Counted from the first letter of the stretch, positions 905 to 63,441 are shown. The stretch: 64,000 bases of DNA from a virus (UHGV-1493261); one strand, 5' to 3'. Notes: generated from the sequence alone by a model not told the origin. Program-made: numbers and translations.

Positions 905-954
905 GGTTTCGCTAATTAGAAGAAACCGCCGTTAATTCAGTCAGGAGATATAAA

Positions 955-3669
955 ATGTCAAAGCTAAGTTTCCTCCAGTTCATGCAGGAAAGAGATCAGT
1001 TGGACGAAGCGTTCAACTCCGCTCCGTATGAGCTGACTATGGGTAAGAAGAACGCAGGCGATGTGTTCTTCACCTTCGTCGACGAAGATGAAAAGGAATA
1101 CCGTATTCAGTTCTATACCCCTCAGGGGCTGGGCAAGAGCGTTCGTCAGGTTTTCATCGGTCAGAAGCGCGGCTCCGTCTATCCTGACGCCATCGCTCGC
1201 TTCAAGAACCCAATGCGCGTTATCGCTTCCATGATCGAAGCGACCAAACAATTCATGGCGACTCCTCTGGGCAAGACCATCGATGGCTTTGCTGTCAACT
1301 TCTCGAAGAAAGCGCTGGATCGCGGTATGACCCTAATTCCTAAGATCATCCGCCAGTCCGGCCTGAAACAAAAACTGAATGTCATGGACCTGACCTACGC
1401 GCCTGTCCCTGACCGTGGTTATGTGTGGCTGGTCCGCAAGGGTAAAGATCCGGCTCAGGTATTCGACGGTCCGAAGATGCAGGGTATCACCTGGGATGAT
1501 CCAGACAAGGTCGGCGACGTTCCGGTTCAGAATAATACTTCGGATGTGGGAGTTGGGGCTGGTTCTTCTGAAATCGAAGTCAACCGCGAGTGGTACAACA
1601 GCTCGGACACTGGTCTGGAGTTGAAGAGCGGGCGAGACCCGATTCGTGGAAACTACGTCCGCCTGATAAGCGGTTCGAAAGAAGTAGCCGCATTCTATGG
1701 TTATGATTTTGACAAATATCCAGACGGGACTGAGGTATCTTGGAATATGAAGCGCGGCTTCACCAACCAAGACTTGGTCGGTGCGTCCATGACCAAACAG
1801 AAGAAAGGCATGTACGATCAGTACACTTTCAAGAAAGGTGCTCAGATAATTCTGGTGGTGGACGTTGACACCAGCAATGACACCAGCAATGACACCAGCA
1901 ATGACAACGGTTGGAAACTCACAAAAGCCGATGCCACTCAACCAATGTTAGTATGGGCGGGGAAAGAAAAAGGTCGCTTAGTCACGGCAAATATCGCTCC
2001 CCACTACAATGAGCCGGGCGTGTATGTTGGCGCATACATGAATGAGAAACCTGTGCGTGGGCAAAGTGCTGATTTCATTGCTCGTCAGTTGAAATTACCA
2101 CAAGTCCCTATCAGTATCCTGAATGATTTCACCACGGCGTCCACAAAATTTTGGAAAGGTTCTCAGCAGAAGTCCGCGCCAGCTGACTCTAACACCACAA
2201 TCGGGGCAACCAGTATCGATCAATTGCGTGACAGCGGTTTCATCGCTCGTGTTCTGGGTATCATTGATGCCAACATTGACCAGAAAGCAAGCCATCTCCC
2301 AGGGGAAAGCATTAAGAAGATCGGACAGGCACGTTATCAAACTAAAGGTGGTCTGGTGATCATCGTCAGCTTCGATTCAGTCGATGGCAAGAATCTGACC
2401 TACAACGTGTTCTCTGAAATCGAAACTCAGCCTGGTGTCATCTCTGGCGATGCTCGTCTGGTGGCAAACAAAATCATGGAAACGATCACACACGTGGCCA
2501 AACATCAGTACACTGGCAAATGGGAAATTAGCGCAGTGCCAACAAGCGCTCCATACCCTATCAAAGCCATTCGCCGTTCTCGGGGCTGGGGTTATGTGGA
2601 AACCGCAAACTGGACTCTGAAAGTGTCCGACGCTGTCCTGAATCGTGTGAAGCCAGGGAACACTGCTCTGCTGGAACTCATCAAAGAACCTCCTCGTGGC
2701 AAGCACCTGCTGGTAATCATCCCAGAGAAGGGCGACAAGACCCTGATGCTGAAAGATCGTATTAGCGGGGCCATCTATGGTTCTATCGACCTGAATGCCC
2801 AGGGTGCTGATATGGTCAACTCTGGAACCCTGAAGATGCCACGCAACGCCATGGTGTTTGGCGAGACTGTCAACGGTATGTCTATCACTTGGTCTGGAAT
2901 CAATTTCCCGAAAACTGGGAAGTATGATGGTGCTGTATTGACCACGAATGTGACCTATTACTACGACAAAGGAAAAGTCGCGTTCACACCGATGATCTCC
3001 CAGAAAGGGCGGCTGCTGAACAATCCGAAGACATATGAACTTCCTTTGAATAAAGACATTGTTCAGGCATTGATCGATGAAATTTCTTCTAAAATGGAAA
3101 TGATATCTCGGAATATGCAAACTCTGAAAAGCACGTCGCATAATCCGAAACAAGTATTTTTGGACGACATTTCTGTTGACAACAACGGTTCAGTCCTTTG
3201 GCGCGGGTACGACATGGCGGATCGCCGCACTAATGATTTTATGTTGGGTATCCTGTCCAAAGAAACCGAGAGACTGGAGAAAGAGTCGAGTACTGCGAAG
3301 AAGACTGGTGCCGACCTTGCGGCATACGCCGACTCCATCCGCGACAACGCACCAAAAGGTCGCGACCTGGATTGGCAGATCTATGCAAGCCGTGATGGTC
3401 AGACTCTGAACGTGGACTGGGATATCACCTTCCGCCGCAACACAACTGAAGGGGCATATCGCGAGTTCAAAGCTCAGATTGACCGCGCCAACCAGTACCT
3501 GCAGACTCTGTACCGGGATGCGAAGTCCAAGGGTTACAACCCGACTGAACCAAACCTGATGACTCTGGCTAGCGCCCAGCAGTCTGACCAGTGGTCACAA
3601 GACAACGGGGAAAGCGCATACAGCGAGTACGAGCAGTCCCTGGGTGGAAACATGCAGATCAAGATCTGA
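955..3669 (+). CDS. large hypothetical protein (904 aa) with internal DTSN x3 repeat
   Basis: Long uninterrupted ORF with SD CAGGAG; no family motif recognised. Confidence 0.6.
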   Translation: MSKLSFLQFMQERDQLDEAFNSAPYELTMGKKNAGDVFFTFVDEDEKEYRIQFYTPQGLGKSVRQVFIGQKRGSVYPDAIARFKNPMRVIASMIEATKQFMATPLGKTIDGFAVNFSKKALDRGMTLIPKIIRQSGLKQKLNVMDLTYAPVPDRGYVWLVRKGKDPAQVFDGPKMQGITWDDPDKVGDVPVQNNTSDVGVGAGSSEIEVNREWYNSSDTGLELKSGRDPIRGNYVRLISGSKEVAAFYGYDFDKYPDGTEVSWNMKRGFTNQDLVGASMTKQKKGMYDQYTFKKGAQIILVVDVDTSNDTSNDTSNDNGWKLTKADATQPMLVWAGKEKGRLVTANIAPHYNEPGVYVGAYMNEKPVRGQSADFIARQLKLPQVPISILNDFTTASTKFWKGSQQKSAPADSNTTIGATSIDQLRDSGFIARVLGIIDANIDQKASHLPGESIKKIGQARYQTKGGLVIIVSFDSVDGKNLTYNVFSEIETQPGVISGDARLVANKIMETITHVAKHQYTGKWEISAVPTSAPYPIKAIRRSRGWGYVETANWTLKVSDAVLNRVKPGNTALLELIKEPPRGKHLLVIIPEKGDKTLMLKDRISGAIYGSIDLNAQGADMVNSGTLKMPRNAMVFGETVNGMSITWSGINFPKTGKYDGAVLTTNVTYYYDKGKVAFTPMISQKGRLLNNPKTYELPLNKDIVQALIDEISSKMEMISRNMQTLKSTSHNPKQVFLDDISVDNNGSVLWRGYDMADRRTNDFMLGILSKETERLEKESSTAKKTGADLAAYADSIRDNAPKGRDLDWQIYASRDGQTLNVDWDITFRRNTTEGAYREFKAQIDRANQYLQTLYRDAKSKGYNPTEPNLMTLASAQQSDQWSQDNGESAYSEYEQSLGGNMQIKI
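1867..1902 (+). repeat. perfect 12-bp tandem repeat x3 (GACACCAGCAAT), in frame, encoding DTSN-DTSN-DTSN
   Basis: Three identical adjacent copies read directly. Confidence 0.9.
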
Positions 3670-3677
3670 TCATCGAA

Positions 3678-3693
3678 AGCCCCTTCGGGGGCT
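3678..3693 (+). terminator. terminator hairpin AGCCCC-ttcg-GGGGCT
   Basis: Perfect 6-bp GC-rich stem immediately after the stop at 3669. Confidence 0.55.
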
Positions 3694-3701
3694 TATAAAT
3701 A
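3694..3701 (+). promoter_or_regulatory. T4-type late promoter TATAAATA
   Basis: Exact TATAAATA octamer 25 nt upstream of the ATG at 3726. Confidence 0.6.
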
Positions 3702-3725: not shown

Positions 3726-4031
3726 ATGAAACCGTTTATCGAATATTTTAAAGAACAAGCCGCTAAACCTCAGACCCATGCTGGTGTCCAGGGTAAGACC
3801 GTATCCATCACCAAGCAAGCTGACGGCACCCAGTGGTGTTCCGGCGCTACCGTGACCCAGATCACTCCTGACAATCAGGCGGATGTCTACAACCTGGAGT
3901 TAACCAACGGCAACACCATCAAGGTGAAGCTGACCCCAGACCAGACTCACGGTATCTCCCAAGGTCAGGAAGTCGTTGCTGTCCATGACGGTTTCGAATT
4001 CTTCTTTGGCAAGCCTGCCGACAAAGACTAA
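3726..4031 (+). CDS. hypothetical late protein (101 aa)
   Basis: ORF with SD GAGGAG; preceded by a late promoter. Confidence 0.55.
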   Translation: MKPFIEYFKEQAAKPQTHAGVQGKTVSITKQADGTQWCSGATVTQITPDNQADVYNLELTNGNTIKVKLTPDQTHGISQGQEVVAVHDGFEFFFGKPADKD

Positions 4032-4062
4032 GTGAAACCATCAAGATGACTCTTGATCATAA

Positions 4063-4091
4063 TCCCCCTAAATACAGGGGGATTTCTTTTT
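4063..4091 (+). terminator. terminator hairpin TCCCCC-taaataca-GGGGGA + T-rich tail; loop carries a TAAATA late-promoter-like core (4067-4074)
   Basis: Inverted repeat plus TTTCTTTTT. Confidence 0.5.
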
Positions 4092-4105: not shown

Positions 4106-4459
4106 ATGGTCAATGCGAGTATTTTCATCAACCGTGGACTGCTTGCTATAGCCCACTCTCATGCCTTGCACTTCGTTACAACGTCCTATGCCAAGCACAA
4201 GGCACTCGGGGAGTTCTACGGGGATCTAGAGGACTTGCTGGACACGTTTACCGAAGCATACATCGGTGCAGGTGGTCAGTATGTTCCATCATTCGAGAAT
4301 ATCAAATTGTACAACCCAGACCCTATCTCCTATATTAACAGTGTGGTGATAGACGTCGATGGCATCTACAAGCAGTGTGACTCCCACCTTCAGAGCACTC
4401 TTGACGATATCAAGACACTGTGCTATCAGACGATCTACAAACTGAAGCAGCTGTCGTAA
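4106..4459 (+). CDS. hypothetical protein (117 aa)
   Basis: ATG at 4106 with GAGG 9 nt upstream; the track start at 4046 lies inside the terminator hairpin and is unlikely. Confidence 0.5.
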   Translation: MVNASIFINRGLLAIAHSHALHFVTTSYAKHKALGEFYGDLEDLLDTFTEAYIGAGGQYVPSFENIKLYNPDPISYINSVVIDVDGIYKQCDSHLQSTLDDIKTLCYQTIYKLKQLS

Positions 4460-4516: not shown

Positions 4517-5128
4517 ATGAGCAAAATCTTTATCCCGTCACACCGCGAAGGATGTGAAATCGCGGCCAACTACCTGCGCGGTCGCATGAACTGCGGCGCT
4601 GTCTTCATCGAGCCAAATTCGTTTGACAACAAAGAATCACCTGATGCCATCGGGTTCCGTTCCGGCGGTTGCTCTATCCTGATGGAAGTGAAGGTGTCTC
4701 GCTCTGATTTCCTTACCGACAAGAAGAAGCCTCATCGCATGGATCCGACGACGGGCATGGGCGCATACCGCTTTTATGTCTGCCCTCAGGACGTGATCAG
4801 GGTTGAAGACCTACCACCGAAGTGGGGGCTGTTCTACTTCACACCCCGCAAGTCCCTGATGCCAGTTCATGTGCCAGACATGCGGTACTCTTTATTGTCA
4901 TCACCAGATCATTATCAGAAGTACCTTGATGAACAGATCAAGAGAGGAAGAACCGTTACTCGGCATATGCGCAGCTACATGGAACTCCTCGAAGGCTTCG
5001 CCCACTTTGAGCGCAACACTGCCGGGGAGCAGAATATCCTGTATGGGGCTTGGCGCCAACTGTGTATAGCTCAAAGTCGTGGTGTAGACTATACTGTGAC
5101 CGAAGTGTTCCAGAGGCCGAAGATCTAA
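4517..5128 (+). CDS. putative PD-(D/E)xK-type nuclease
   Basis: Motif sPDaigf...ilmEvKvS; ATG at 4517 with SD AAAGGAAAGGA; stop overlaps the next start (TAATG). Confidence 0.4.
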   Translation: MSKIFIPSHREGCEIAANYLRGRMNCGAVFIEPNSFDNKESPDAIGFRSGGCSILMEVKVSRSDFLTDKKKPHRMDPTTGMGAYRFYVCPQDVIRVEDLPPKWGLFYFTPRKSLMPVHVPDMRYSLLSSPDHYQKYLDEQIKRGRTVTRHMRSYMELLEGFAHFERNTAGEQNILYGAWRQLCIAQSRGVDYTVTEVFQRPKI

Positions 5129-5784
5129 TGAACTATCAAAAAATTCATGACGCTATAATAACCAGAGCCAGGGATAGAATTTTAACTGGTTACAAGGAAA
5201 AACACCACGTCATCCCTCTATCTCTTGGTGGTGAAGACAGGAACTACAATAAAGTTTCTCTCACAGCATCTGAACATTATATTATTCATCTTCTGTTGGC
5301 AAAAATTCACGGCGGGGTAATGGTCAGCGCATTTAAAAAGATGCGCCACTTGACCTCTAATCCTCCAAACAATAAAGAATTTGCCGCCAGGAGGGAATTG
5401 TTGTGTACGACAGCCGGAGAGAAAGCGAAAGATCCACAAAAACGGAAAAATCATTCTCTGAAAATGAAGGGTAGAAACCATACAGAATCTACCAAATTGT
5501 CAATATCTAATTCCATGACTGGGGAGAATAACCCAATGAAGGGGATACCTGCATGGAGGAATCCGACCAACATCAGCCGAGGAACCCATAAAAATTGGTT
5601 GGCGGCTGGAGAAATTTATGACTTGTACATCACAGGGAAATTTTTAAGAGTTATCGACCTCTTCAATGCTTGCAAATTGCCGACATCATACGGAACGGTT
5701 TCCACCATAAAAACAAAATTGGAATTGGGTTGGAAACCAAGGAAAGACGCGGATTGGTTGCAATTCTATGAGGAACACAAATGA
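5128..5784 (+). CDS. HNH homing endonuclease (free-standing)
   Basis: Motif HHVIPLSLGGEDRNYNKVSLTASEHYIIH; visibly AT-richer than neighbours; translationally coupled on both sides. Confidence 0.7.
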   Translation: MNYQKIHDAIITRARDRILTGYKEKHHVIPLSLGGEDRNYNKVSLTASEHYIIHLLLAKIHGGVMVSAFKKMRHLTSNPPNNKEFAARRELLCTTAGEKAKDPQKRKNHSLKMKGRNHTESTKLSISNSMTGENNPMKGIPAWRNPTNISRGTHKNWLAAGEIYDLYITGKFLRVIDLFNACKLPTSYGTVSTIKTKLELGWKPRKDADWLQFYEEHK

Positions 5785-7134: not shown

Positions 7135-7163
7135 TTTACTATTCAATAATAGCGCACTATTAT
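7135..7163 (+). promoter_or_regulatory. sigma70-like early promoter: -35 TTTACT, 17-nt spacer, -10 TATTAT, AT-rich upstream region
   Basis: Direct read; A/T tract 7095-7130 upstream. Confidence 0.55.
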
Positions 7164-7199
7164 AATTCACATAGGGCGGTAACACACCGCCGAATGAAA

Positions 7200-8606: not shown

Positions 8607-8639
8607 TTTAAATACCTCTGCATTCATTGTGGAGGTATT
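8607..8639 (+). promoter_or_regulatory. late-promoter-like TTTAAATA (8607-8614) overlapping the 5' arm of a hairpin (8611-8619 / 8631-8639) whose 3' arm contains the endolysin SD GGAGG
   Basis: AATACCTCT pairs with GGAGGTATT; the ATG at 8644 follows. Confidence 0.45.
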
Positions 8640-8643
8640 TCTT

Positions 8644-9438
8644 ATGGCCATTCTAAAACTTGGCAACCGTGGCACTGAAGTGAAGGCACTTCAGAATAGC
8701 CTCAACAAAATCGGCTTCACCCTCGTCGCTGATGGTATCTTTGGCAAGGCAACAGAGAACGCTGTCAAGACTGTTCAGGCGGGTGCGGGGCTTGTCATTG
8801 ATGGTATCGTGGGTCCAAAGACCTCCTATGCTATTCGCAACGCCGGAGACGCCCATCAGGATCATCTAACTGAGTCAGACCTGATTGATGCTGCTAACGA
8901 TCTGGGTGTTGACCTCGCCTCTGTCAAGGCGGTGAATCAGGTTGAGTCACGCGGTACGGGCTTCACCAAGTCAGGTAAGATCAAGACATTGTTTGAGCGC
9001 CACATCATGTATAAGAAGCTGACGGCGAAGTTCGGGCAGGCTCGGGCGAATGCCATGGGACATATGTACCCGACGTTGGTCAGCCCTTCCGCAGGCGGGT
9101 ACACGGGTGGCGACGCGGAGTTGGATCGACTTCATGCAGCGATCAACATCGACGAGGATTGTGCGTACGAGAGTGCCTCATACGGCCTCTTTCAGATCAT
9201 GGGCTTCAACTGCCAGGTCTGTGGGTATGCCAACGCCAAGGAGATGTTCAACGACTTCCTGACAGGCGAACGCGCTCATTTGATGGCATTCGTGAAGTTC
9301 ATCAAGGCTGACGCCAAGCTCTGGCAGGCTCTGAAGGACAAGAACTGGGCTGAGTTTGCGCGGCGCTATAATGGTCCGGCATATGCCAAGAACCAGTACG
9401 ACACGAAGCTCGCTGCTGCATACCGCAGCTTCAGTTAA
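8644..9438 (+). CDS. endolysin: N-terminal peptidoglycan-binding domain plus muramidase-like catalytic domain
   Basis: PG-binding repeat LGNRGTEVKALQNSLNKIGF...DGIFGKATENAV; C-terminal region SYGLFQIMGFN. Confidence 0.7.
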   Translation: MAILKLGNRGTEVKALQNSLNKIGFTLVADGIFGKATENAVKTVQAGAGLVIDGIVGPKTSYAIRNAGDAHQDHLTESDLIDAANDLGVDLASVKAVNQVESRGTGFTKSGKIKTLFERHIMYKKLTAKFGQARANAMGHMYPTLVSPSAGGYTGGDAELDRLHAAINIDEDCAYESASYGLFQIMGFNCQVCGYANAKEMFNDFLTGERAHLMAFVKFIKADAKLWQALKDKNWAEFARRYNGPAYAKNQYDTKLAAAYRSFS

Positions 9439-9466: not shown

Positions 9467-9539
9467 ATCCAATCCTCAGGTATGCTGGGTTGTCACCTTA
9501 ATTAGAGGTGATGACACCCTGAGATATAGGAAGGTTCCC

Positions 9540-10382: not shown

Positions 10383-10465
10383 GTAACTCGCCAACCCTCC
10401 CCGCCGCCTTCAATCTACGAGGGCGGCGTATAATAAAACCTGCGTAAACAAACCCGAGGAACACC

Positions 10466-14241: not shown

Positions 14242-14265
14242 TTGAAAGCGGGAACTATATCATGA
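14242..14265 (+). promoter_or_regulatory. Conserved translation-initiation box TTGAAAGCGGGAACTATATCATGA
   Basis: Near-identical to 524-548. Confidence 0.4.
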
Positions 14266-14723
14266 CAAACAAAGTACTCACCAACCCACTGCACAACTTC
14301 GGTTACATTCAACTCCCTCTGGTGATCGACACCCTGTACGCCGACGACAAAGAAGAGATCTGCTGGTCACCCACCGCACTGATTGAACGCGAAATCTTCA
14401 AGTCTGTTGTTGATGTCATGTTCCGTATCGGTCGCAATGGACCTCTGGTCTACCTCGGCAAGGTGACTGAGTTGAAGACAAGCCACAACGAACGCTTCCT
14501 TCGTATCGATACAACGGGGTGCTCTCAGCAGGACTTCAACACACTACGTAACTATGTACTGATCAACCGTCCGGTCAGCCAGCACCGCCCGTACCTGACG
14601 TCAATGCACATCGACAATTTCATCACCGACGTGCACCTCCGCGCCGAAACCCTTCATGAAGAGGAAACAGGCCGAGCTATCGACACAGTCTTAAATATGG
14701 TTGTGATCACCCTGGCGGAGTAG
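14262..14723 (+). CDS. hypothetical early protein (153 aa)
   Basis: ORF preceded by the promoter cassette. Confidence 0.5.
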   Translation: MTNKVLTNPLHNFGYIQLPLVIDTLYADDKEEICWSPTALIEREIFKSVVDVMFRIGRNGPLVYLGKVTELKTSHNERFLRIDTTGCSQQDFNTLRNYVLINRPVSQHRPYLTSMHIDNFITDVHLRAETLHEEETGRAIDTVLNMVVITLAE

Positions 14724-14728
14724 TCCTC

Positions 14729-15079
14729 ATGCAAGATTACAAAGAGCTGAGCATGCAGCTGGCAGTCCCCATACCCGACAAAGATTTATACCAGAACCTG
14801 CATCATCTGATGTCTGAAGGACACATGCTGTCATTGCAGTCTGAGGATGGAACTCAGATCGGTTATGCCACCAGTTGCGTGGTCTACGACAAACCAGGAG
14901 ACGAAGAGCGCGGACAGGTCAGTGTGGGTTCCAGATTTGTGTTGAACAAGAAGCTGGAGGGATCAGTGGTTGACGTCAGGCCGATGATTATCCTCTACCA
15001 CTTCAACGGTAAAGAGATGTTCAGGTTATTGAGCCACTTCATGTTAGTCGTGGCTCCGGCATTCAGGACGAAATTCTAA
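14729..15079 (+). CDS. hypothetical protein (116 aa)
   Basis: ORF. Confidence 0.45.
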   Translation: MQDYKELSMQLAVPIPDKDLYQNLHHLMSEGHMLSLQSEDGTQIGYATSCVVYDKPGDEERGQVSVGSRFVLNKKLEGSVVDVRPMIILYHFNGKEMFRLLSHFMLVVAPAFRTKF

Positions 15080-15529: not shown

Positions 15530-17140
15530 TTACTCTTTGGTGCCGAAATTACCACCATTGTCTTTTAATTCTGCCTTGATGTCAATCTCACCCGGACCCG
15601 TAGGGGATGCAGGGGTTGCACCTGACAGAGAAGAAGCGCGACCAGCACCTTCGGCATATATGATGTTACCATTGATCGTCTGAGCGACAGTCAGTTTGTC
15701 AGCGATTATCTCAGTCGTTAGAATCTTAGGAACCTTCAATGTCCCGCCGACCTCCAGAGTCTCGCAGATAATGCGCAGAATATTCTGCGCTTGCATTTCC
15801 GCTAGGTCACTGAATTTCATCAGCGCTGTGCCCGCAACCACATTTGAGTAGTTGTTGGAATGCAAATGATAGACCTCACCTGTCTTGCGCTGAACTTCAG
15901 TTCCTTTGACCGTCAGGTTGTGGTCCCCGCCGACATAATAACGCTTGTTGAACATCGTCAGGTCATAGTGGTCTTTGACGGACTTGTTGACCACATCACC
16001 ATCCGGCAACATTTGCTTGTAAGACCCAGACTTATGCATCCAATGAAGACGTTCACCACCAGGGGTGTCATCCACTTCCATAATATGCCCAGCTCGGGAC
16101 ACCATGACGTTATTGTACGGGTATTTGGAGCCACCCGCAGCCGGAACTATGGTCTCTCCAGTGTTGTCAATATCCCGCACTCGCCCAGTGGGAGCCGGAG
16201 TCGGTTGTTCCTTTGGAGTACGATCTGGGATAGGTTCTGACCATTTACCATTCTGCTGAGCAGGCAAGGCTGTGGCTGTGTTAGCAGGACCAGGCCAACG
16301 ATACCCCAAGACCGAAGAACGTCTGAAACGACTGACCTTCACTGAATCGGATTGGTTGCCACCAATACACCAGACATAGTTTTCATCGAACTTCTGTACA
16401 AACGCCACGTGTCCAAATGTAGGGTTGTTACCACGCCGGAAGACTACGATAGCACCATATTGTGGTGCTGACAGTGGAGTGCCCCATGTAAGGTAAGATC
16501 GGGCAAGAGCGGAGCGTGTAGACGTGTATCCAGCCTGTATCATAACCCAACCCACGAACGCCGCACACCACGACACTTCATCTTCAGAAGCACCAAGGGA
16601 GGTTGTCTTGTGATATTCTATAATGCGCGGGTTGTTGTTGAACTTTCCGGCATACTCCTTGATACCCAATTCGCCACGAGCGATTGTCATCCACTTCTCT
16701 GGATCATACCCACCAACAGGTGGTTGTGGATCTGGTTGTGGTTCGTCTTCTTGTTTCACAGGAACGTCAGTGACAGCGTTGTACGCCTGACGTTCTACAG
16801 ATTGAACGACCTGCCCGAGAGCCAGCGGGTTTGTGTCGGCGCCATCAGTAGGGCTTGAACCAGTCCAAGTCCAGGTGATGCGTAAATTCTGGTATGCTTC
16901 GTCAAGGGCGAACCCCATAACCTCAGTGCCAGGAATGATACCCGTTGGAGACCAACCTAAACCAGCAGAGGAGGCATTTGAAGCAGGCATCAGTACCTTC
17001 GCCCATGGGAGTTTGTCTGTAGGCAGGAGGACGGGATCGTCGGTGTGTACGCCATATATGCGGACGGCGACGCGCCCGTTTTGGTCTGGATCGTTGACAT
17101 CTTCAACGGTGCCGTAAAACCATCTCATATTGTCTAACAT
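15530..17140 (-). CDS. 5: baseplate central spike: gp5-like N-terminal OB domain fused to a CHAP peptidase/amidase domain
   Basis: N-terminus WFYGTVEDVNDPDQNGRVAVRIYGVH...LPWAKVL; CHAP Cys (SWCAAFVGWV) and His (GHVAFV). Confidence 0.7.
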   Translation of the reverse strand: MLDNMRWFYGTVEDVNDPDQNGRVAVRIYGVHTDDPVLLPTDKLPWAKVLMPASNASSAGLGWSPTGIIPGTEVMGFALDEAYQNLRITWTWTGSSPTDGADTNPLALGQVVQSVERQAYNAVTDVPVKQEDEPQPDPQPPVGGYDPEKWMTIARGELGIKEYAGKFNNNPRIIEYHKTTSLGASEDEVSWCAAFVGWVMIQAGYTSTRSALARSYLTWGTPLSAPQYGAIVVFRRGNNPTFGHVAFVQKFDENYVWCIGGNQSDSVKVSRFRRSSVLGYRWPGPANTATALPAQQNGKWSEPIPDRTPKEQPTPAPTGRVRDIDNTGETIVPAAGGSKYPYNNVMVSRAGHIMEVDDTPGGERLHWMHKSGSYKQMLPDGDVVNKSVKDHYDLTMFNKRYYVGGDHNLTVKGTEVQRKTGEVYHLHSNNYSNVVAGTALMKFSDLAEMQAQNILRIICETLEVGGTLKVPKILTTEIIADKLTVAQTINGNIIYAEGAGRASSLSGATPASPTGPGEIDIKAELKDNGGNFGTKE

Positions 17141-17174
17141 ATTGAGTTCCGGTTGTCAAACAAGGATTTGAAGG

Positions 17175-17182
17175 TATTTATG
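17175..17182 (-). promoter_or_regulatory. late-promoter-like CATAAATA, 35 nt upstream of the gp5-like start
   Basis: Minus-strand read of 17175-17182. Confidence 0.35.
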
Positions 17183-17481
17183 CGCAGCTGATTTTGCCTT
17201 ATATACTATAGGAAGCTCTGCTTCCGTTCATTTTATTTGTTTTATTCGATCCTATTCGCTTCGCTCATCAAACCGCCCTATGCGGGCAGCACCATTCCAA
17301 TGCCATGGAGGCATAAGGGCGAGGCAATAACTGTACACCCCAGAACACTCCTTGAAAAATGGTATTTTACTGACAATCTGATTCAAAACAAACAAACACC
17401 AACAAATGACTCGGGAACAAGCCCATTATAGCAATTTCAGGTAAAGAGAGTGCGTGTTAACCGATTTTACAGTTAAGCCAA

Positions 17482-17505
17482 TAAAAATCCCGCCGAAGCG
17501 GGATT
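17482..17505 (-). terminator. terminator hairpin AATCCCGC-ttcg-GCGGGATT + TTTTT (minus strand)
   Basis: Perfect 8-bp stem plus T run downstream of the gene ending at 17653. Confidence 0.6.
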
Positions 17506-32402: not shown

Positions 32403-32420
32403 GCAATTCAATAAAGCGGG

Positions 32421-32443
32421 TCATAGGGTATAATTCTATGATC
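32421..32443 (+). other. hairpin TCATAG-ggtataatt-CTATGA with TATAAT in the loop
   Basis: Direct read. Confidence 0.4.
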
Positions 32444-33187: not shown

Positions 33188-33216
33188 TTTACTTTCAAGA
33201 AATAATCGCCTAATAT
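33188..33216 (+). promoter_or_regulatory. sigma70-like early promoter: -35 TTTACT, 17-nt spacer, -10 TAATAT
   Basis: Same architecture as 468, 7135 and 14183. Confidence 0.5.
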
Positions 33217-33226
33217 TTAATCTGTA

Positions 33227-41850: not shown

Positions 41851-42819
41851 TTAGAAGCTATCGCCTTCGGTTTCAAAGCGCCCTTTATGCAGAGGCTCCA
41901 GTTCGATGAAGGTCATGTCAACCTGCGTGGACACGATACCATCATCTTTGTGAACCGCGTATGAACTGTCCGGCGTCTCGTTGACGAACATGTTGGAAAG
42001 TACACAAGTGGAGATGCGGTGCAGCCACTGGTTACGCTCCCCATTGACCATGAACGTAATGTCGAATGTTGAAGGATGCAAGTAAAACGCGCTGGAATTC
42101 TTGTTGTACTTGTACTCTGGGTACATGTGCATCTTGAACATGCGGATGATCTCACGGACCATTTTGGCTTCCTTCTGAGATCGCGGCGTGAATTTGAATG
42201 TAAACGGAATCTCACGGTTGCGTACCCCCTGGAAGATCATCTCCACATACGGGTTGGTCATCGTACCAGTGAACAACTCAAGGGTGTCATGAGCGTTGAT
42301 GGTAGGCATGAACGGGATAGCCTCCGATGCAGACTGAATGGCCTTGGTCGCTGCAAATCGACCCATTTCCTTCCCGACGTTGAGCGCATCACCCAGTTTA
42401 AACTGAGTCATGTCTTGGGCGGCGCGGGAAAGGAACTGTGCCCCCATACCAGCCAGCCCCAGCTCGCTACCGTTCCAGCCAACGCCATAGTTGGTTGTAA
42501 TGGACTCGGGCATACAAAGTACGATAGACTCGTTTGAACGAACGTGACGCGCCCATGCATATTTGGTGATGGAACCAGACTTGGACCCATAGACCACAGG
42601 AGTATTCCCCAGAGGGTTCTGTATTGGGTTCTCGATAGTCTGAGTAGCCGTGTTGCCATAAGATGAACCGGAGATGCGGTTGATGTTGAATAGGACATAG
42701 TGTCCCAAGGTCTTACCCCCAGTGACGTCTAGGGGATAAGACAATTGCTTCTGAGCCTGGGACAATCCCTTCGTGTTCAGAACCTTGATCTTATCGATTG
42801 TCTTTTTGAAGTCGGACAT
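41851..42819 (-). CDS. hypothetical structural protein (322 aa), possibly baseplate/tube-related
   Basis: Preceded by a late-promoter-like CCTAAATA at 42854-42861. Confidence 0.35.
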   Translation of the reverse strand: MSDFKKTIDKIKVLNTKGLSQAQKQLSYPLDVTGGKTLGHYVLFNINRISGSSYGNTATQTIENPIQNPLGNTPVVYGSKSGSITKYAWARHVRSNESIVLCMPESITTNYGVGWNGSELGLAGMGAQFLSRAAQDMTQFKLGDALNVGKEMGRFAATKAIQSASEAIPFMPTINAHDTLELFTGTMTNPYVEMIFQGVRNREIPFTFKFTPRSQKEAKMVREIIRMFKMHMYPEYKYNKNSSAFYLHPSTFDITFMVNGERNQWLHRISTCVLSNMFVNETPDSSYAVHKDDGIVSTQVDMTFIELEPLHKGRFETEGDSF

Positions 42820-42829
42820 AGTCTCAGCC

Positions 42830-42837
42830 CTTAAATA
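42830..42837 (+). promoter_or_regulatory. late-promoter-like CTTAAATA for the gp4-like gene
   Basis: 33 nt upstream of the ATG at 42870. Confidence 0.35.
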
Positions 42838-42853
42838 GATAGAGTGTTATGGC

Positions 42854-42861
42854 TATTTAGG
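42854..42861 (-). promoter_or_regulatory. late-promoter-like CCTAAATA (minus strand) for the gene starting at 42819
   Basis: 35 nt upstream of the minus-strand ATG. Confidence 0.3.
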
Positions 42862-42869
42862 ACTAGATT

Positions 42870-43484
42870 ATGAGCAACTATCTTCAGGGGAAGTACACCC
42901 CAGTTAATCCCAAGAAGTATCAGGGGAATGTGAATAACATCATCTTCCGCTCTTCGCTGGAGTTGGTGGCTTTCAAGTTCTGTGATATGAACTCCGCGAT
43001 AGTGAAGTGGTCTAGTGAGGAGACCGTAATCCCTTACATTTCCCCAGTCGACGGGCGCACCCATCGTTACTTCATGGACCTCAAGGTCTGGACGCGCCGT
43101 GAAGGGCAAGAGGAACTACAGGTCACCCTCATTGAGATCAAGCCCAAAGACCAGATCAAGCAGCCGAAGAAGACTCCGAACATGAAGGAGTCGACATTCA
43201 ACAATGCGATGCGAACCTGGTTGGTCAATTCTGCCAAGTGGGAGGCCACCCGCGAACTGTGTGCCAAGAAGAACTGGAAGTTCATTATCTGGACCGAAGA
43301 GCATCTTGTTCCAGGTGAGGATCCGGATGTTCGTAAACAGTTTGAGCTGAAGTCGAAAAAGAAACGGGATATGGAGATGCAAGATCGCCGACATGCTGAG
43401 CGTGTCAGGGTGCTGAAGGAACAGATGCGGAAGGAGATTAAACCCGCCCCAACGGAGCGGGATGATGGACTTCTATTACCTTAA
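42870..43484 (+). CDS. 4: head completion protein, T4 gp4-like
   Basis: N-terminal third matches my recollection of T4 gp4 (IIFRSS.E...F, EETVIPYISPVDG..HRYFMDL, IEIKPK). Confidence 0.6.
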   Translation: MSNYLQGKYTPVNPKKYQGNVNNIIFRSSLELVAFKFCDMNSAIVKWSSEETVIPYISPVDGRTHRYFMDLKVWTRREGQEELQVTLIEIKPKDQIKQPKKTPNMKESTFNNAMRTWLVNSAKWEATRELCAKKNWKFIIWTEEHLVPGEDPDVRKQFELKSKKKRDMEMQDRRHAERVRVLKEQMRKEIKPAPTERDDGLLLP

Positions 43485-48971: not shown

Positions 48972-48974
48972 AAT

Positions 48975-49252
48975 CTATTCAATCCAAATTTCAGGTTCAG
49001 AGATGTCAACCATATCCACTGTCTGGTTCTTCAGATCATGGAAACAGTCGCCGAGGAATTGTATTTTGCCGTCGGTCAGGAACAGATGGCAAATGATGCT
49101 GGATCAGTTGCATTCACCAGCAGGCTCGGTGTGAACGTAGGCTCAATAACATTGTTGTTCCACGACCACATCGGACCTTGGGTTTCGCCCTTAATGCGAT
49201 ATAGATGAAGTATACCACACCCAGGACAATGAAAATACAAGGAATCATCCAT
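48975..49252 (-). pseudogene. Cys/His zinc-ribbon-like gene (about 93 aa) split by a single-nucleotide frameshift
   Basis: Frame 1 (49252 down to stop 49076) gives MDDSLYFHCPGCG...PTFTPSLLVNATDPAS; frame 2 (49103 down to stop 48975) gives CHLFLTDGKIQFLGDCFH...; one extra T in the TTT run at 49091-49093 (minus strand) joins them. Confidence 0.5.
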
Positions 49253-49287
49253 AGACAGAAGTTTAGGGCTCAGAAGCTATGTTATGA

Positions 49288-55566: not shown

Positions 55567-56388
55567 TTAGACCGCAGCCATTTCGCAACGAGTAGAGGTC
55601 ACAGAGTGGCCGTCAGCGTCTTCAACAACACACCAGTACTCACCCTCGTTTTCGGCAGCAACTGCAGTGATAACCAGGCTCGCAGTTGCAGCAGTGGGGT
55701 TAGTGCCAGCATCGATCACCTCACCTTCACCACCAGGGACATCAGAGAAGTACCAAGTATGTGTGTATGGGGTAGTGCCGCCTGTAGCAGCGATGGTGAA
55801 GGTTGCGGATTCACCTGTTGTTACATCCTGAGAAGCAGCCAGATCGGTAGACAGAGACAGAGCGCCAGCCACTGTGATGACGGTAGAGTCAGTGTGGTCA
55901 CCTTCAATGGTTACACCGTATACAGTCACTGAACCCGGCGCCAGCAGCTTGAATTTACCACCACCGATGTGCACAGCTTTGGTCAGATCGCCAGAGTACC
56001 AGTTGACACCCTGGTAGGTCGCGTTCTCCGGAGCGACGGCCGCCTTCAGTTCAACAACCTGACCGACTTCACCATTAGCAGTTTCAGGGGTGATGGTCAG
56101 GCCAGTGGTCAGCACAGCGCTTGGGTCGTGGATTTCATAAGACAGCTGGAAGCCAACGGGCTTGGTTGGATCCACTTTGGTGACGCCATCGGCCTGCAAA
56201 TTGCTCTTAGTCAGCAGTGCATCCAGACCTTTACACTCAGTCAGGATCTCGTCTGGGTCTTGGTTAAGACTGGTCTTTTCCCAACCACGAGCAGTACCTG
56301 TTACAGTGTGAAGACGCTCAGTTTCCGGTTTGTTGCGAACAACTTCCGGTGCTACTAATACAGTGATCGTTGGCATGGTTTCCTCCAC
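55567..56388 (-). CDS. Ig-like domain protein (BIG2-like plus Ig-like), candidate virion decoration protein
   Basis: Ig hallmark LVITAVAAENEGEYWCVVEDADGHS; BIG2-like VELKAAVAPENATYQGVNWYSGD. Confidence 0.5.
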   Translation of the reverse strand: MEETMPTITVLVAPEVVRNKPETERLHTVTGTARGWEKTSLNQDPDEILTECKGLDALLTKSNLQADGVTKVDPTKPVGFQLSYEIHDPSAVLTTGLTITPETANGEVGQVVELKAAVAPENATYQGVNWYSGDLTKAVHIGGGKFKLLAPGSVTVYGVTIEGDHTDSTVITVAGALSLSTDLAASQDVTTGESATFTIAATGGTTPYTHTWYFSDVPGGEGEVIDAGTNPTAATASLVITAVAAENEGEYWCVVEDADGHSVTSTRCEMAAV

Positions 56389-56747
56389 TCATCCAAATCG
56401 TTGTTCAGAGCCATCATCAGCTCATTATCTGGTTCGTATGAACCGGAACATAAATCATCGCGCCATACGCCTAATGTCAACAAAGCAGCCTTGAGGCGTG
56501 GCAACTGGGGCTTATCCACCTTCAAAACGAGCATACGGCAAGCGGCCTCTGTTTCGAACGTATTGAAGACAGTAATCAATTGATTGAGAATCAACCGAGG
56601 ACTCTTACCAGGGACAAATCTCTTCAATGATTGATTAATTAGCGAAATCCGCTGAATGTCTACCAACAGTTCATCCCACGAGACAGAATCTACAATATAA
56701 TGCCTCAGTGCATAATCCATCAAGTTGCTTTCGTCAACGATAGGCAT
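56355..56747 (-). CDS. hypothetical protein (130 aa)
   Basis: ORF. Confidence 0.4.
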   Translation of the reverse strand: MPIVDESNLMDYALRHYIVDSVSWDELLVDIQRISLINQSLKRFVPGKSPRLILNQLITVFNTFETEAACRMLVLKVDKPQLPRLKAALLTLGVWRDDLCSGSYEPDNELMMALNNDLDEWRKPCQRSLY

Positions 56748-56777: not shown

Positions 56778-57203
56778 TTATTTAATCTGCAATTTTTCGA
56801 TCAGCTTCGCAATCAGCTGAATGCGATCTTCTTCTGTGATACCCAGCGGCGCAGCCAACAACTTGAGATCGTCAACCCCCAACAGGTTCAGAGTCTCGGC
56901 TGTGATGTTGGTTTCAATCACAGCCCCGGTTTCAAACGGCTTACCGAACTTGTCGCGACCATAACGCTTGAGGGTCGCAGCCAGCCCTGGAAGCTCCTGG
57001 AGGAGTTCCTTCGTGCCGTCTTGGTATTCGCACACCCAACCGTACCCGCCAGCGTAGACGACGCCTCCGTCTCCCCCTGGAGGGATGTTATCGATGGCGC
57101 GTTGTAGGTAAGTGGGCAACACACCTTCCTCCTTCGCCTGGATGTCATCGACTGGGGCTTCGGTTTTGATTTCAACTTTCTTGACTTCAGGTTTCTTCGC
57201 CAT
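56778..57203 (-). CDS. hypothetical protein (141 aa)
   Basis: ORF. Confidence 0.45.
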   Translation of the reverse strand: MAKKPEVKKVEIKTEAPVDDIQAKEEGVLPTYLQRAIDNIPPGGDGGVVYAGGYGWVCEYQDGTKELLQELPGLAATLKRYGRDKFGKPFETGAVIETNITAETLNLLGVDDLKLLAAPLGITEEDRIQLIAKLIEKLQIK

Positions 57204-57392
57204 GTTTGGTTCTCCTATAGACTGTTACGTATTTACCACAGCAATTGCAACAGTATACGTGCATCGCGTATCCTTCGCCTGTGAAGTCGCAACCACCACA
57301 GCGACAGAACAATTTCACGAACTGTTGGTCATGAACTTCACGGGGAGGAAAGTTCTTGTGGGAGTATTCCCTGGTCTCGCCTTCGAACTGAA

Positions 57393-57410
57393 AGGAGGCC
57401 GGAGCCTCCT
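57393..57410 (-). terminator. terminator hairpin GGAGGC-cgga-GCCTCC downstream of rIIB
   Basis: Perfect 6-7 bp stem; minus-strand tail TTTCAG. Confidence 0.5.
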
Positions 57411-57427
57411 TGGTGGATGGGGTTTGG

Positions 57428-62577: not shown

Positions 62578-63029
62578 TTCGTTTCCCCCTTGGCAGCATA
62601 GGACAGTGCCTGAACAATCATTACAGCCAGATCGATCGGCGAGTAGGTGCTGTTCAGATCTTCTCGAACACTCTGCTCGATTTCTTCATCAGACTGGACC
62701 ACAGGACAGTTCTTCCCCTGGCGACGGCGTTCTGCGTTGATCATATCACGCAGGAGCAGATCGGTGAAGGAGTACTCATCAAAGTTTTCCAGATAATTCT
62801 GAATCCCAGTGGATACAGGGGTTGGCTCCGGCTCCTGTGCCCCAGGATCTTTCAGGGCAGCAACAGTGGCATCAATATCCCACAGAGGGTTCATCAGTAA
62901 CAGAAGATTAACTGTTTCTCCTGACTCTGAAGTCGGGTTATTTCCCAGCACCTTGTAAAGATTCTTCAGGGTGCTGTCAAAGGTCAGAACGGTCTGCGCC
63001 AGTTCTTCATAAGTTGGTTTGGTAGTCAT
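62574..63029 (-). CDS. hypothetical protein (151 aa)
   Basis: ORF. Confidence 0.45.
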   Translation of the reverse strand: MTTKPTYEELAQTVLTFDSTLKNLYKVLGNNPTSESGETVNLLLLMNPLWDIDATVAALKDPGAQEPEPTPVSTGIQNYLENFDEYSFTDLLLRDMINAERRRQGKNCPVVQSDEEIEQSVREDLNSTYSPIDLAVMIVQALSYAAKGETK

Positions 63030-63391
63030 CAGCGTTTGCTCCGGCGTTTGTTCTTCATCTTAGTGGCCTGACGTTTGTGAGCAGCGGCTCCACGCAGGCG
63101 TGTGGGTTCTTGATAGCGGCGGTCGGCATAGAACTCCCGCATATCACATTCAGTGTCTCGTTGTTTAAGTTTGGCAATCAGAGCCTTGGTGTCCGGCATC
63201 TGTTCTAACTCGTCACAGATGATCATGCGCTCACCAGGCTCATTCCGACGCTTCGGGATATCATCGGGAGTGATGTGCACAACCTCAACTCCTGGTAGCT
63301 TCTCTTCCAGTAGAACTTTGATCAACCGAGAACCCAGTCCGGCTCCAACAATCACAATCTTTCTTGGCTTGTCTGTCATGTTCTTGTCCAC
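63029..63391 (-). CDS. hypothetical protein (120 aa)
   Basis: ORF. Confidence 0.45.
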   Translation of the reverse strand: MDKNMTDKPRKIVIVGAGLGSRLIKVLLEEKLPGVEVVHITPDDIPKRRNEPGERMIICDELEQMPDTKALIAKLKQRDTECDMREFYADRRYQEPTRLRGAAAHKRQATKMKNKRRSKR

Positions 63392-63441
63392 GAAAAAGGG
63401 GATAGAGCAATAATACCCTATCCCCTTTTATTGAAGAACGA

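Follow-up and report, generated by a model that had tools for sequence, protein, structure and literature searches.

The octamer TATAAATA at positions 3694-3701 lies ahead of a gene in a phage sequence of 64,000 nucleotides (UHGV-1493261), the whole of which is referred to here as the window. A first-pass annotation regarded this octamer as one of a family of late-promoter-like elements that share a TAAATA core and are served by a gp55-type late sigma system with a relaxed consensus. The locus thus raises the question of whether such a family exists and which form of RNA polymerase would recognize it. Taken as a whole, the set of boxes described below very probably represents gp55-type late promoters.

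Megablast comparison of the whole window places the phage in the family Ackermannviridae, subfamily Aglimvirinae, as an Agtrevirus-like virus. Sequence identity is 95-98% with Escherichia phage AV101 and its relatives, compared with about 92% with Shigella phage AG3. The AV101 annotation served to curate a list of 90 genes, the start and stop codons of which were verified, and the starts were confirmed by tblastn. All upstream regions having a spacer of at least 20 nt were inspected for motifs, and the spacing was measured from the last A of a box to the start codon. All 4096 hexamers were ranked for an upstream zone comprising the sense strand 20-42 nt before the start, with composition-preserving shuffles of the same zones (n=5000) as the null. 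The 77 kb of AV101 outside the window formed an independent set. Ortholog starts were located in phages CBA120 (Kuttervirus) and 0507-KN2-1 (Taipeivirus; KN2-1 below), and a position matrix was compiled from 30 sites in the window and AV101.

The gene labels used in the original proposal (gp5-CHAP, tube-family protein, gp4-like protein and endolysin) are correct according to the protein domains and the AV101 and CBA120 annotations. The product of 15530..17140 (gp5) has Gp5_OB and CHAP domains, and that of 8644..9438 (the endolysin) has PG_binding and N-acetylmuramidase (PF11860) domains. In the annotations of both AV101 and CBA120, 22315..23259 corresponds to the gp54/tube-like baseplate protein and 42870..43484 to gp4, the head completion protein; 41851..42819 is gp48. 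The orthologs of hyp904, hyp101 and hyp117 in Dickeya phage XF4 are annotated as structural proteins.

Some other features of the gene map may be recorded here. Hyp101 (3726-4031, 101 aa) matches positions 1-100 of the 189 in phrog_4048, and its orthologs in AV101, AG3 and XF4 are encoded by longer genes of 570-579 nt. As only the N-terminal half of the family profile and of the longer orthologs is matched, the window phage carries a truncated version of this protein. A 657-nt gene at 5128-5784, immediately 5' of the primase gene, has the size and position of the homing endonuclease F-LimV of XF4 and no counterpart in AV101, and probably represents the insertion of a mobile endonuclease. Long spacers of 224-412 nt without a curated gene are situated at 17141-17503, 48972-49287, 57204-57427 and 63030-63441, and some long spacers contain short unannotated ORFs, such as 63029..63391. 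A scan of the whole window at the Rfam gathering threshold found no RNA family.

Placement of the TAAATA box

The two copies of TATAAATA reported previously, at 3694-3701 on the plus strand and at 23294-23301 on the minus strand, are both present and are the only ones in the window. The TAAATA cores reported with them were also found, at 4069-4074, 8609-8614 and 42832-42837 on the plus strand and at 17175-17180 and 42854-42859 on the minus strand. In agreement with the spacing of 25-35 nt that had been claimed, these seven sites are 24, 31, 29, 34, 34, 32 and 34 nt from a start codon.

The signal lies in the placement of the hexamer, not in its raw abundance. The octamer TATAAATA occurs twice, compared with an expectation of 0.69, and at least two copies were obtained in 18 of 100 shuffles. 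TAAATA occurs 15 times, compared with an expectation of 14.2, which is the level of chance. Nevertheless, 12 of these 15 copies (80%) are on the sense strand 24-38 nt ahead of a gene start, and TAAATA has the first rank of the 4096 hexamers for the upstream zone. The comparison with shuffled controls that the first-pass annotation had proposed also bears out the enrichment: the shuffled zones contain 1.19±1.07 copies and never more than 6 in 5000 shuffles, as against the 12 observed.

Since the raw totals are at expectation, and since intergenic DNA is richer in A/T than coding DNA, the boxes might be functionless A/T-rich hexamers that gather between genes by chance. However, hexamers consisting of A and T only, taken as a class, have 7% of their copies in the upstream zone, and the antisense hexamer TATTTA is found there in a single copy. 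Moreover, the box is retained across genera although its flanks change, and the same result was obtained with the independent part of AV101. A chance origin of the set has next to no probability.

In this independent part, TAAATA is again the top hexamer of the upstream zone, with 12 of its 34 copies placed there; the hexamers next in rank, CTAAAT and ACTAAA, overlap it. The AV101 genes outside the window that are headed by TAAATA are gp22, gp18, gp14, gp6, VriC, three tailspike/tail-fibre genes and UvsW, and TAATTA is found ahead of gp19 and gp20.

In the comparisons with CBA120 and KN2-1, a TAA(A/T)TA box was found no more than 5 nt from the same position in 23 of 23 cases, and the flanks of the conserved boxes are about 63% identical. 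Identity within the hexamer itself is circular, because the comparison was anchored on the box, and it is the rate of retention that constitutes the evidence. At three orthologous positions, those of gp4, hyp101 and gp26, TAAATA in one genus is replaced by TAATTA in another. The gp4 box is TAATTA in both CBA120 and KN2-1. The box ahead of hyp101, which is TAATTA in KN2-1, is retained in AV101, AG3 and CBA120; the position of the gp26 box is occupied by TATAAATA in CBA120 and KN2-1. These exchanges, together with the TAATTA boxes at gp19 and gp20 of AV101, led to the addition of three TAATTA sites in the window, ahead of gp26, hyp904 and PhoH. Like five of the TAAATA sites (gp2, the RuvC-like gene, hyp116, hyp130 and hyp141), they had been overlooked previously (Table 1).

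Table 1. Positions of the TAA(A/T)TA boxes, of the second promoter motif and of the gp33 gene in the window
Feature	Position	Strand	Location or match
GCTAATTA, TAATTA variant	911..918	+	36 nt 5' of ATG, 955..3669 (904 aa, hyp904)
TATAAATA box	3694..3701	+	24 nt 5' of ATG, 3726..4031 (hyp101)
CCTAAATA box	4067..4074	+	31 nt 5' of ATG, 4106..4459 (MobD.6-like, hyp117)
TTTAAATA box	8607..8614	+	29 nt 5' of endolysin ATG (8644)
CTTAATTA, TAATTA variant	9497..9504	+	35 nt 5' of PhoH ATG (9540)
CTTAAATA box	14690..14697	+	31 nt 5' of ATG, 14729..15079 (hyp116)
CATAAATA box	17175..17182	-	34 nt 5' of gp5 ATG at 17140
TATAATTA, TAATTA variant	18488..18495	-	28 nt 5' of gp26 ATG at 18459
CGTAAATA box	19508..19515	+	38 nt 5' of RuvC-like resolvase ATG (19554..20144)
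CTTAAATA box	23273..23280	+	32 nt 5' of gp2 ATG (23313); half of a face-to-face pair
TATAAATA box	23294..23301	-	34 nt 5' of gp54/tube-like GTG start (23259)
CTTAAATA box	42830..42837	+	32 nt 5' of gp4 ATG (42870)
CCTAAATA box	42854..42861	-	34 nt 5' of gp48 ATG (42819)
ATTAAATA box	56779..56786	-	31 nt 5' of ATG, 56355..56747 (hyp130)
GGTAAATA box	57230..57237	-	26 nt 5' of ATG, 56778..57203 (hyp141); kept in CBA120
TTCAAT-N13-16-TATAAT	7142-7166	+	
TTCAAT-N13-16-TATAAT	10409-10434	+	
TTCAAT-N13-16-TATAAT	20001-20026	+	
TTCAAT-N13-16-TATAAT	26173-26198	+	
TTCAAT-N13-16-TATAAT	32407-32434	+	
gp33 homolog, late-transcription co-activator	20680..20925	+	PF16805, E 8.5e-18; PHROG 254

The gp5 box is kept in CBA120 and KN2-1 despite diverged flanks, and the PhoH box is kept in the same two phages. 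The box ahead of hyp904 is kept in AV101. The hyp116 box, which is situated within the 3' end of the gene 14262..14723, is the weakest member of the set. It is kept only in AV101, and no clear ortholog start for hyp116 was found in CBA120 or KN2-1. The box ahead of hyp130 overlaps the stop codon of 56778..57203, and the gene that follows hyp130 encodes an Ig-domain structural protein (55567..56376). The minus-strand box at 42854..42861 heads the operon gp48-gp53-hyp462-hyp664. The assignment is of the highest confidence for gp5, gp54, gp2, gp48, gp4, gp26 and the endolysin, and of lower confidence for hyp116, PhoH and the site in a terminator loop at 4067.

The divergent pair proposed near 42820-42869 consists of boxes that face each other ahead of gp4 on the plus strand and gp48 on the minus strand. 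In this pair (42830-42861), as in that at 23273-23301, each box lies in the 5' UTR that is predicted for the divergent transcript; two polymerases would thus be unable to occupy both boxes at once.

Two copies of TAAATA, at 26469-26474 (+) and 33214-33219 (-), have no gene to serve and may be due to chance; one is inside a coding region and the other is antisense between two plus-strand genes. The copy at 19547-19552 (-) was rejected as a promoter, as it forms the 3' arm of the resolvase hairpin described below and is not kept in Kuttervirus. A depletion of TAAATA outside promoter positions was also considered and dropped: 3 copies are left over in the window, but about 21 in the rest of AV101.

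Box consensus and gene classes

The core T-A-A-(A/T)-T-A is invariant in the 30-site matrix. There is no base preference between -22 and -3 relative to the box, and a weak a/c followed by C is found just 5' of it. No base reaches 50% at any position from -22 to -1 of the matrix, and a conserved -35 element is thus lacking. In the window, the exact TAAATA core is found at 12 sites, TAATTA at 3 and the full octamer TATAAATA at only 2. The earlier description of the consensus as relaxed was right in that only TAAATA or TAATTA is fixed, while the two bases that complete the T4 octamer vary. The pairs found at -13/-12 in the window are TA, CA, CT, CC, GG, TT, AT and CG. Across the boxes of the matrix, C is the commonest base at -12, and A(-12) is not conserved. 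The usual form in AV101 outside the window is aCTAAATAyc, sometimes CTAAATAcccc at tailspike genes.

The bases directly after the box are C-rich, unlike the AT-rich bases in T4. A is enriched at the sixth and seventh bases 3' of the box (19 and 17 of the 30 sites, respectively), where, by analogy with T4, the transcription start would be expected to fall.

The major capsid gene of AV101 (gp23; upstream region L050, 40875-40967) lacks an exact TAA(A/T)TA box. It has only ACTAAGTA, a box with one mismatch situated 40 nt 5' of the ATG, and this points to the use of boxes with a single mismatch as well.

The genes preceded by TAAATA in the window are gp5, gp54, gp2, gp48, gp4, the endolysin, hyp101, hyp117, hyp130, hyp141, hyp116 and the RuvC-like gene. 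Each of the remaining structural genes in the window, namely gp25, gp53, those for the two large proteins that follow gp53 and that for the Ig-domain protein, is located 3' of a same-strand gene headed by a box. NrdA, the thymidylate-synthase operon, ssb, ligase and similar genes have a different element ahead of them, TATAAT, often in the form TTCAAT-N13-16-TATAAT. The extended form has 5 matches in the window, all on the plus strand, compared with an expectation of 0.01, and is never found ahead of structural genes. The two classes are separate: late and virion genes, those for lysis and of the packaging type included, have TAA(A/T)TA, and early and replication genes have TATAAT.

This separation bears on whether the boxes could be -10 elements for the host sigma-70 holoenzyme or for a middle-mode factor, instead of being read by gp55. 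TAAATA is A/T-rich and is placed as a -10 element would be, the gp26 variant TATAAT-TA holds a perfect sigma-70 -10 hexamer, and neither PhoH nor the RuvC-like gene is a classical late gene. However, TAAATA agrees with the consensus TATAAT at no more than three positions out of six, and its last base is A instead of T; neither a conserved -35 element nor a TG extension is found 5' of the boxes. Early genes are already served by the separate TTCAAT-N13-16-TATAAT class, and the genes downstream of the boxes belong to the set served by gp55 promoters in T4. Recognition of the set by sigma-70 or a middle-mode factor is thus very unlikely.

The TTCAAT-N13-16-TATAAT match at 20001-20026 is located within the RuvC-like gene and is directed toward the membrane/FmdB/gp33 genes; gp33 would accordingly come from an early-type promoter. 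A perfect sigma-70 consensus, TTGACA-16-TATAAT (12 of 12 positions; 0.02 expected per window), is located at 18645-18672 (-), inside the plus-strand gene 18509..19033 and pointing toward gp26. It is present in AV101, and no perfect match was found in CBA120 or KN2-1.

Predicted late transcription and leader hairpins

The window encodes a homolog of the late-transcription co-activator gp33 (Table 1), PHROG 254 being the late promoter transcriptional regulator family. Genes for gp55 (PHROG 234, E 2.6e-52) and gp45 (PHROG 223) are found in the 98%-identical AV101, a few kb past the edge of the window. The window phage most likely has gp55 as well, judging by these near-identical genomes, with its gene outside the window.

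The relationship of AV101 gp55 to its T4 namesake is distant. BLASTP of T4 gp55 against AV101 gp55 gave no match, a phmmer search of the PDB sequences with the AV101 protein did not find T4 gp55, and the AV101 protein has no Pfam match. However, a profile of 16 Ackermannviridae gp55 homologs could be aligned with T4 gp55 by hhalign with a probability of 87% and an E value of 4.5e-6. The cryoEM structure from T4 shows the gp55 residues that line the pockets for promoter bases, with A(-12) flipped into a deep pocket and stacked on Y97 (PMC7892883). The pocket residues N13, R57, F86 and T99 of T4 are identical in the alignment, and L54 aligns with M. On the other hand, an invariant W is found in place of Y97, and F in place of H95. 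This alignment, which is moderately reliable, suggests that the mode of reading the box is conserved while its upstream end has changed.

Late in infection, the core of the host RNA polymerase would be associated with the gp55-type sigma factor of the phage, with assistance from gp33 and the gp45 sliding clamp. Such an enzyme would recognize a box at the -10 position with the core TAAATA, or sometimes TAATTA, and would need no -35 element. Both the dependence on gp55 and the point of initiation are taken by analogy from T4. Transcription would start about 6-7 nt 3' of the box, so that baseplate, head-completion, virion and lysis genes on both strands would have short leaders of about 20-30 nt. 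The gp55-type late system with a relaxed consensus, as first proposed, is supported by the form of the boxes, the class of the genes that they head, the factor genes and earlier predictions for related phages.

Some of the boxes are associated with hairpins. Each leader was folded twice, once from just 5' of the box, as in a read-through transcript, and once from 7 nt 3' of it, as in a transcript with a late start. The endolysin hairpin has 13 bp. Its 5' arm (8610-8622) is formed by the box and its 3' arm (8628-8640) contains the Shine-Dalgarno sequence GGAGG. The read-through form of this leader has a folding energy of -16.1 kcal/mol (z -4.6), compared with -4.3 kcal/mol for the late-start form. 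In the resolvase hairpin (19509-19553), the box is again the 5' arm, and the stem ends 1 nt before the AUG; the corresponding energies are -20.9 kcal/mol (z -4.9) and -3.3 kcal/mol. Between either of these two leaders and the upstream genes on the same strand, no terminator-like site was detected. The same box-in-hairpin architecture is found at three AV101 tailspike genes and at gp6.

The endolysin hairpin is conserved in 9 Ackermannviridae leader variants, and the distant homologs L076 and L077 lack it. In the 8 endolysin leaders that were aligned, three variable pairs are kept via wobble and one sequence has a single A-G mismatch; the changes are one-sided, and no double compensatory change was found among these leaders. 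All 8 distinct resolvase leaders fold, with one A-U to U-A double change and one paired G/C deletion. In the Kuttervirus resolvase leaders, the 3' arm is no longer TATTTA and the 5' box is still TAAATA.

In T4, the leaders of e, 49, soc and I-TevI have a hairpin that sequesters the ribosome binding site and whose 5' arm includes a late promoter (PMC3014915, PMC2988022). Read-through RNA thereby sequesters the ribosome binding site, and RNA made from the late promoter lacks the 5' arm (PMC3014915). The leaders found here resemble those of T4 e and 49 in that they precede an endolysin and a Holliday-junction resolvase and in that the 3' arm covers the Shine-Dalgarno sequence or abuts the AUG. 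However, the proteins are a PG_binding and PF11860 muramidase and a RuvC-like protein, which are not homologous to gpe and gp49. The resemblance is therefore one of function class and regulation only. By this model, transcripts reading through from upstream genes would have their ribosome binding site hidden by the hairpin and would be untranslatable. Transcripts from the late promoter, the start of which is assumed to be as in T4, would lack the 5' arm and could be translated.

The box at 4067..4074 is in the loop of a terminator-like hairpin (4061-4084), and both hairpin and box are conserved in four genera. A late start at this site would begin inside the 3' arm of the terminator and would thereby escape termination. 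Less confidence is placed in this site, since the terminator alone could account for conservation of the loop. The box ahead of hyp101 is directly 3' of another hairpin, at 3677-3694.

For some members of the set, namely the 4067 site and the boxes at 8607 and 19508, which are hairpin arms, there is thus an alternative reason for conservation. By extension, the hexamer might act mainly in RNA, as a leader hairpin, a terminator loop or a protein site in the 5' UTR, and might not be a promoter. The stability and conservation of the endolysin and resolvase hairpins would fit such a role, as would the several tailspike boxes of AV101 that are also hairpin arms. Most boxes, however, including those of gp5, gp2, hyp101 and hyp141 and of AV101 gp22 and gp18, are in no significant structure, and the hexamer is identical with or without a hairpin. 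The Kuttervirus resolvase leaders, in which the box has outlasted its pairing partner, also argue against pairing as the reason for its retention. A role mainly in RNA is unlikely for the set. The RNA and promoter roles are not mutually exclusive, as the T4 leaders combine both.

A further proposal is that gp55 of these phages reads the six base pairs TAA(A/T)TA with -13/-12 free and the A(-12) pocket used differently, and that promoters within hairpins gate translation widely. For this proposal as a whole the case is evenly balanced. A different use of the pocket would be consistent with the alignment of Y97 with W and of H95 with F. Wide gating in Ackermannviridae may cover the endolysin, RuvC-type resolvase and tailspike genes as well as gp6. 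Neither the reading of a six-base-pair core by gp55 nor widespread hairpin gating has been described for Ackermannviridae.

Comparison with late promoters of other phages

Late promoters of the T4 type have already been predicted for this group of phages, and the present finding is the rediscovery of a predicted feature. In the AG3 paper, a search with TATAAATA allowing one mismatch gave 17 candidates, and three putative late promoters are listed (PMC3121705, Table S2). Of these promoters, Porf072 is orthologous to the box at 23294-23301 (-) and Porf084 to that at 17175-17182 (-). In the CBA120 paper, the late recognition sequence of ViI-like phages was stated to be unidentified. Later genome papers cite the motif CTAAATAcCcc for ViI-like/Ackermannviridae phages, as quoted in PMC7283392, and it equals the extended box at the AV101 tailspike genes. 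A search of a literature library found no transcription start mapping and no account of gp55 dependence for any Ackermannviridae phage.

The present analysis defines the core more cleanly and adds the TAATTA variant, the hairpin context and further sites; the six-base-pair core, the variant and the hairpins are not described in the AG3 and CBA120 papers. The question left by the CBA120 paper appears to be settled by sequence comparison, which indicates that the late machinery of ViI-like phages reads a six-base-pair TAA(A/T)TA core. The boxes provide a usable map of late transcription units for phages of the Agtrevirus type, which find application in biocontrol and in the engineering of reporters and tailspikes, and the endolysin and resolvase leaders point to a simple candidate timing device. 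The understanding of phage late transcription is unchanged, because the system is that of T4 with a relaxed box.

In the review of T4 late transcription, 50 late promoters of T4 are listed, with few deviations, and the late consensus of Aeromonas phage Aeh1 has (a/g)C at -13/-12 instead of TA (PMC2988020). The Aeh1 consensus resembles the aCTAAATA sites of AV101 in that TAAATA is preserved as the core, preceded by a change of the first two positions to nC. However, Aeh1 belongs to another family, and -13/-12 in the window are not fixed at all. By their sequence, the window boxes would fit a relaxed consensus of the Aeh1 type taken further, as opposed to the strict consensus of T4.

The arrangement of the boxes is closely similar to that in T4, where TATAAATA is found 14-28 nt ahead of genes 4, 53, 26, 51, 18, 20 and 22. 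In both cases there is a single A/T box at the -10 position, without a -35 element and on either strand. The same orthologous genes (4, 26, 18, 19, 20 and 22) are headed by it, and the 14-28 nt between box and ATG in T4 are of the same order as the 23-42 nt found here. In more than 40 distant T4-like contigs, whose gp4 is 40-50% identical, TAAATA is at the same place ahead of gp4. T4 gene 4 also has the same face-to-face divergent pair as the window, an arrangement that occurs in T4 at 4/53 and at 26/51. Homologs of gp33, gp55 and gp45 are present, the latter two by way of AV101. The two systems differ in that only the last six bases (TAAATA) of the T4 box TATAAATA are fixed here, and in that TAATTA is interchangeable with TAAATA at orthologous sites in these phages. 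The AV101 gp55, with 263 aa compared with 185 aa in T4, is similar to its counterpart at the profile level only.
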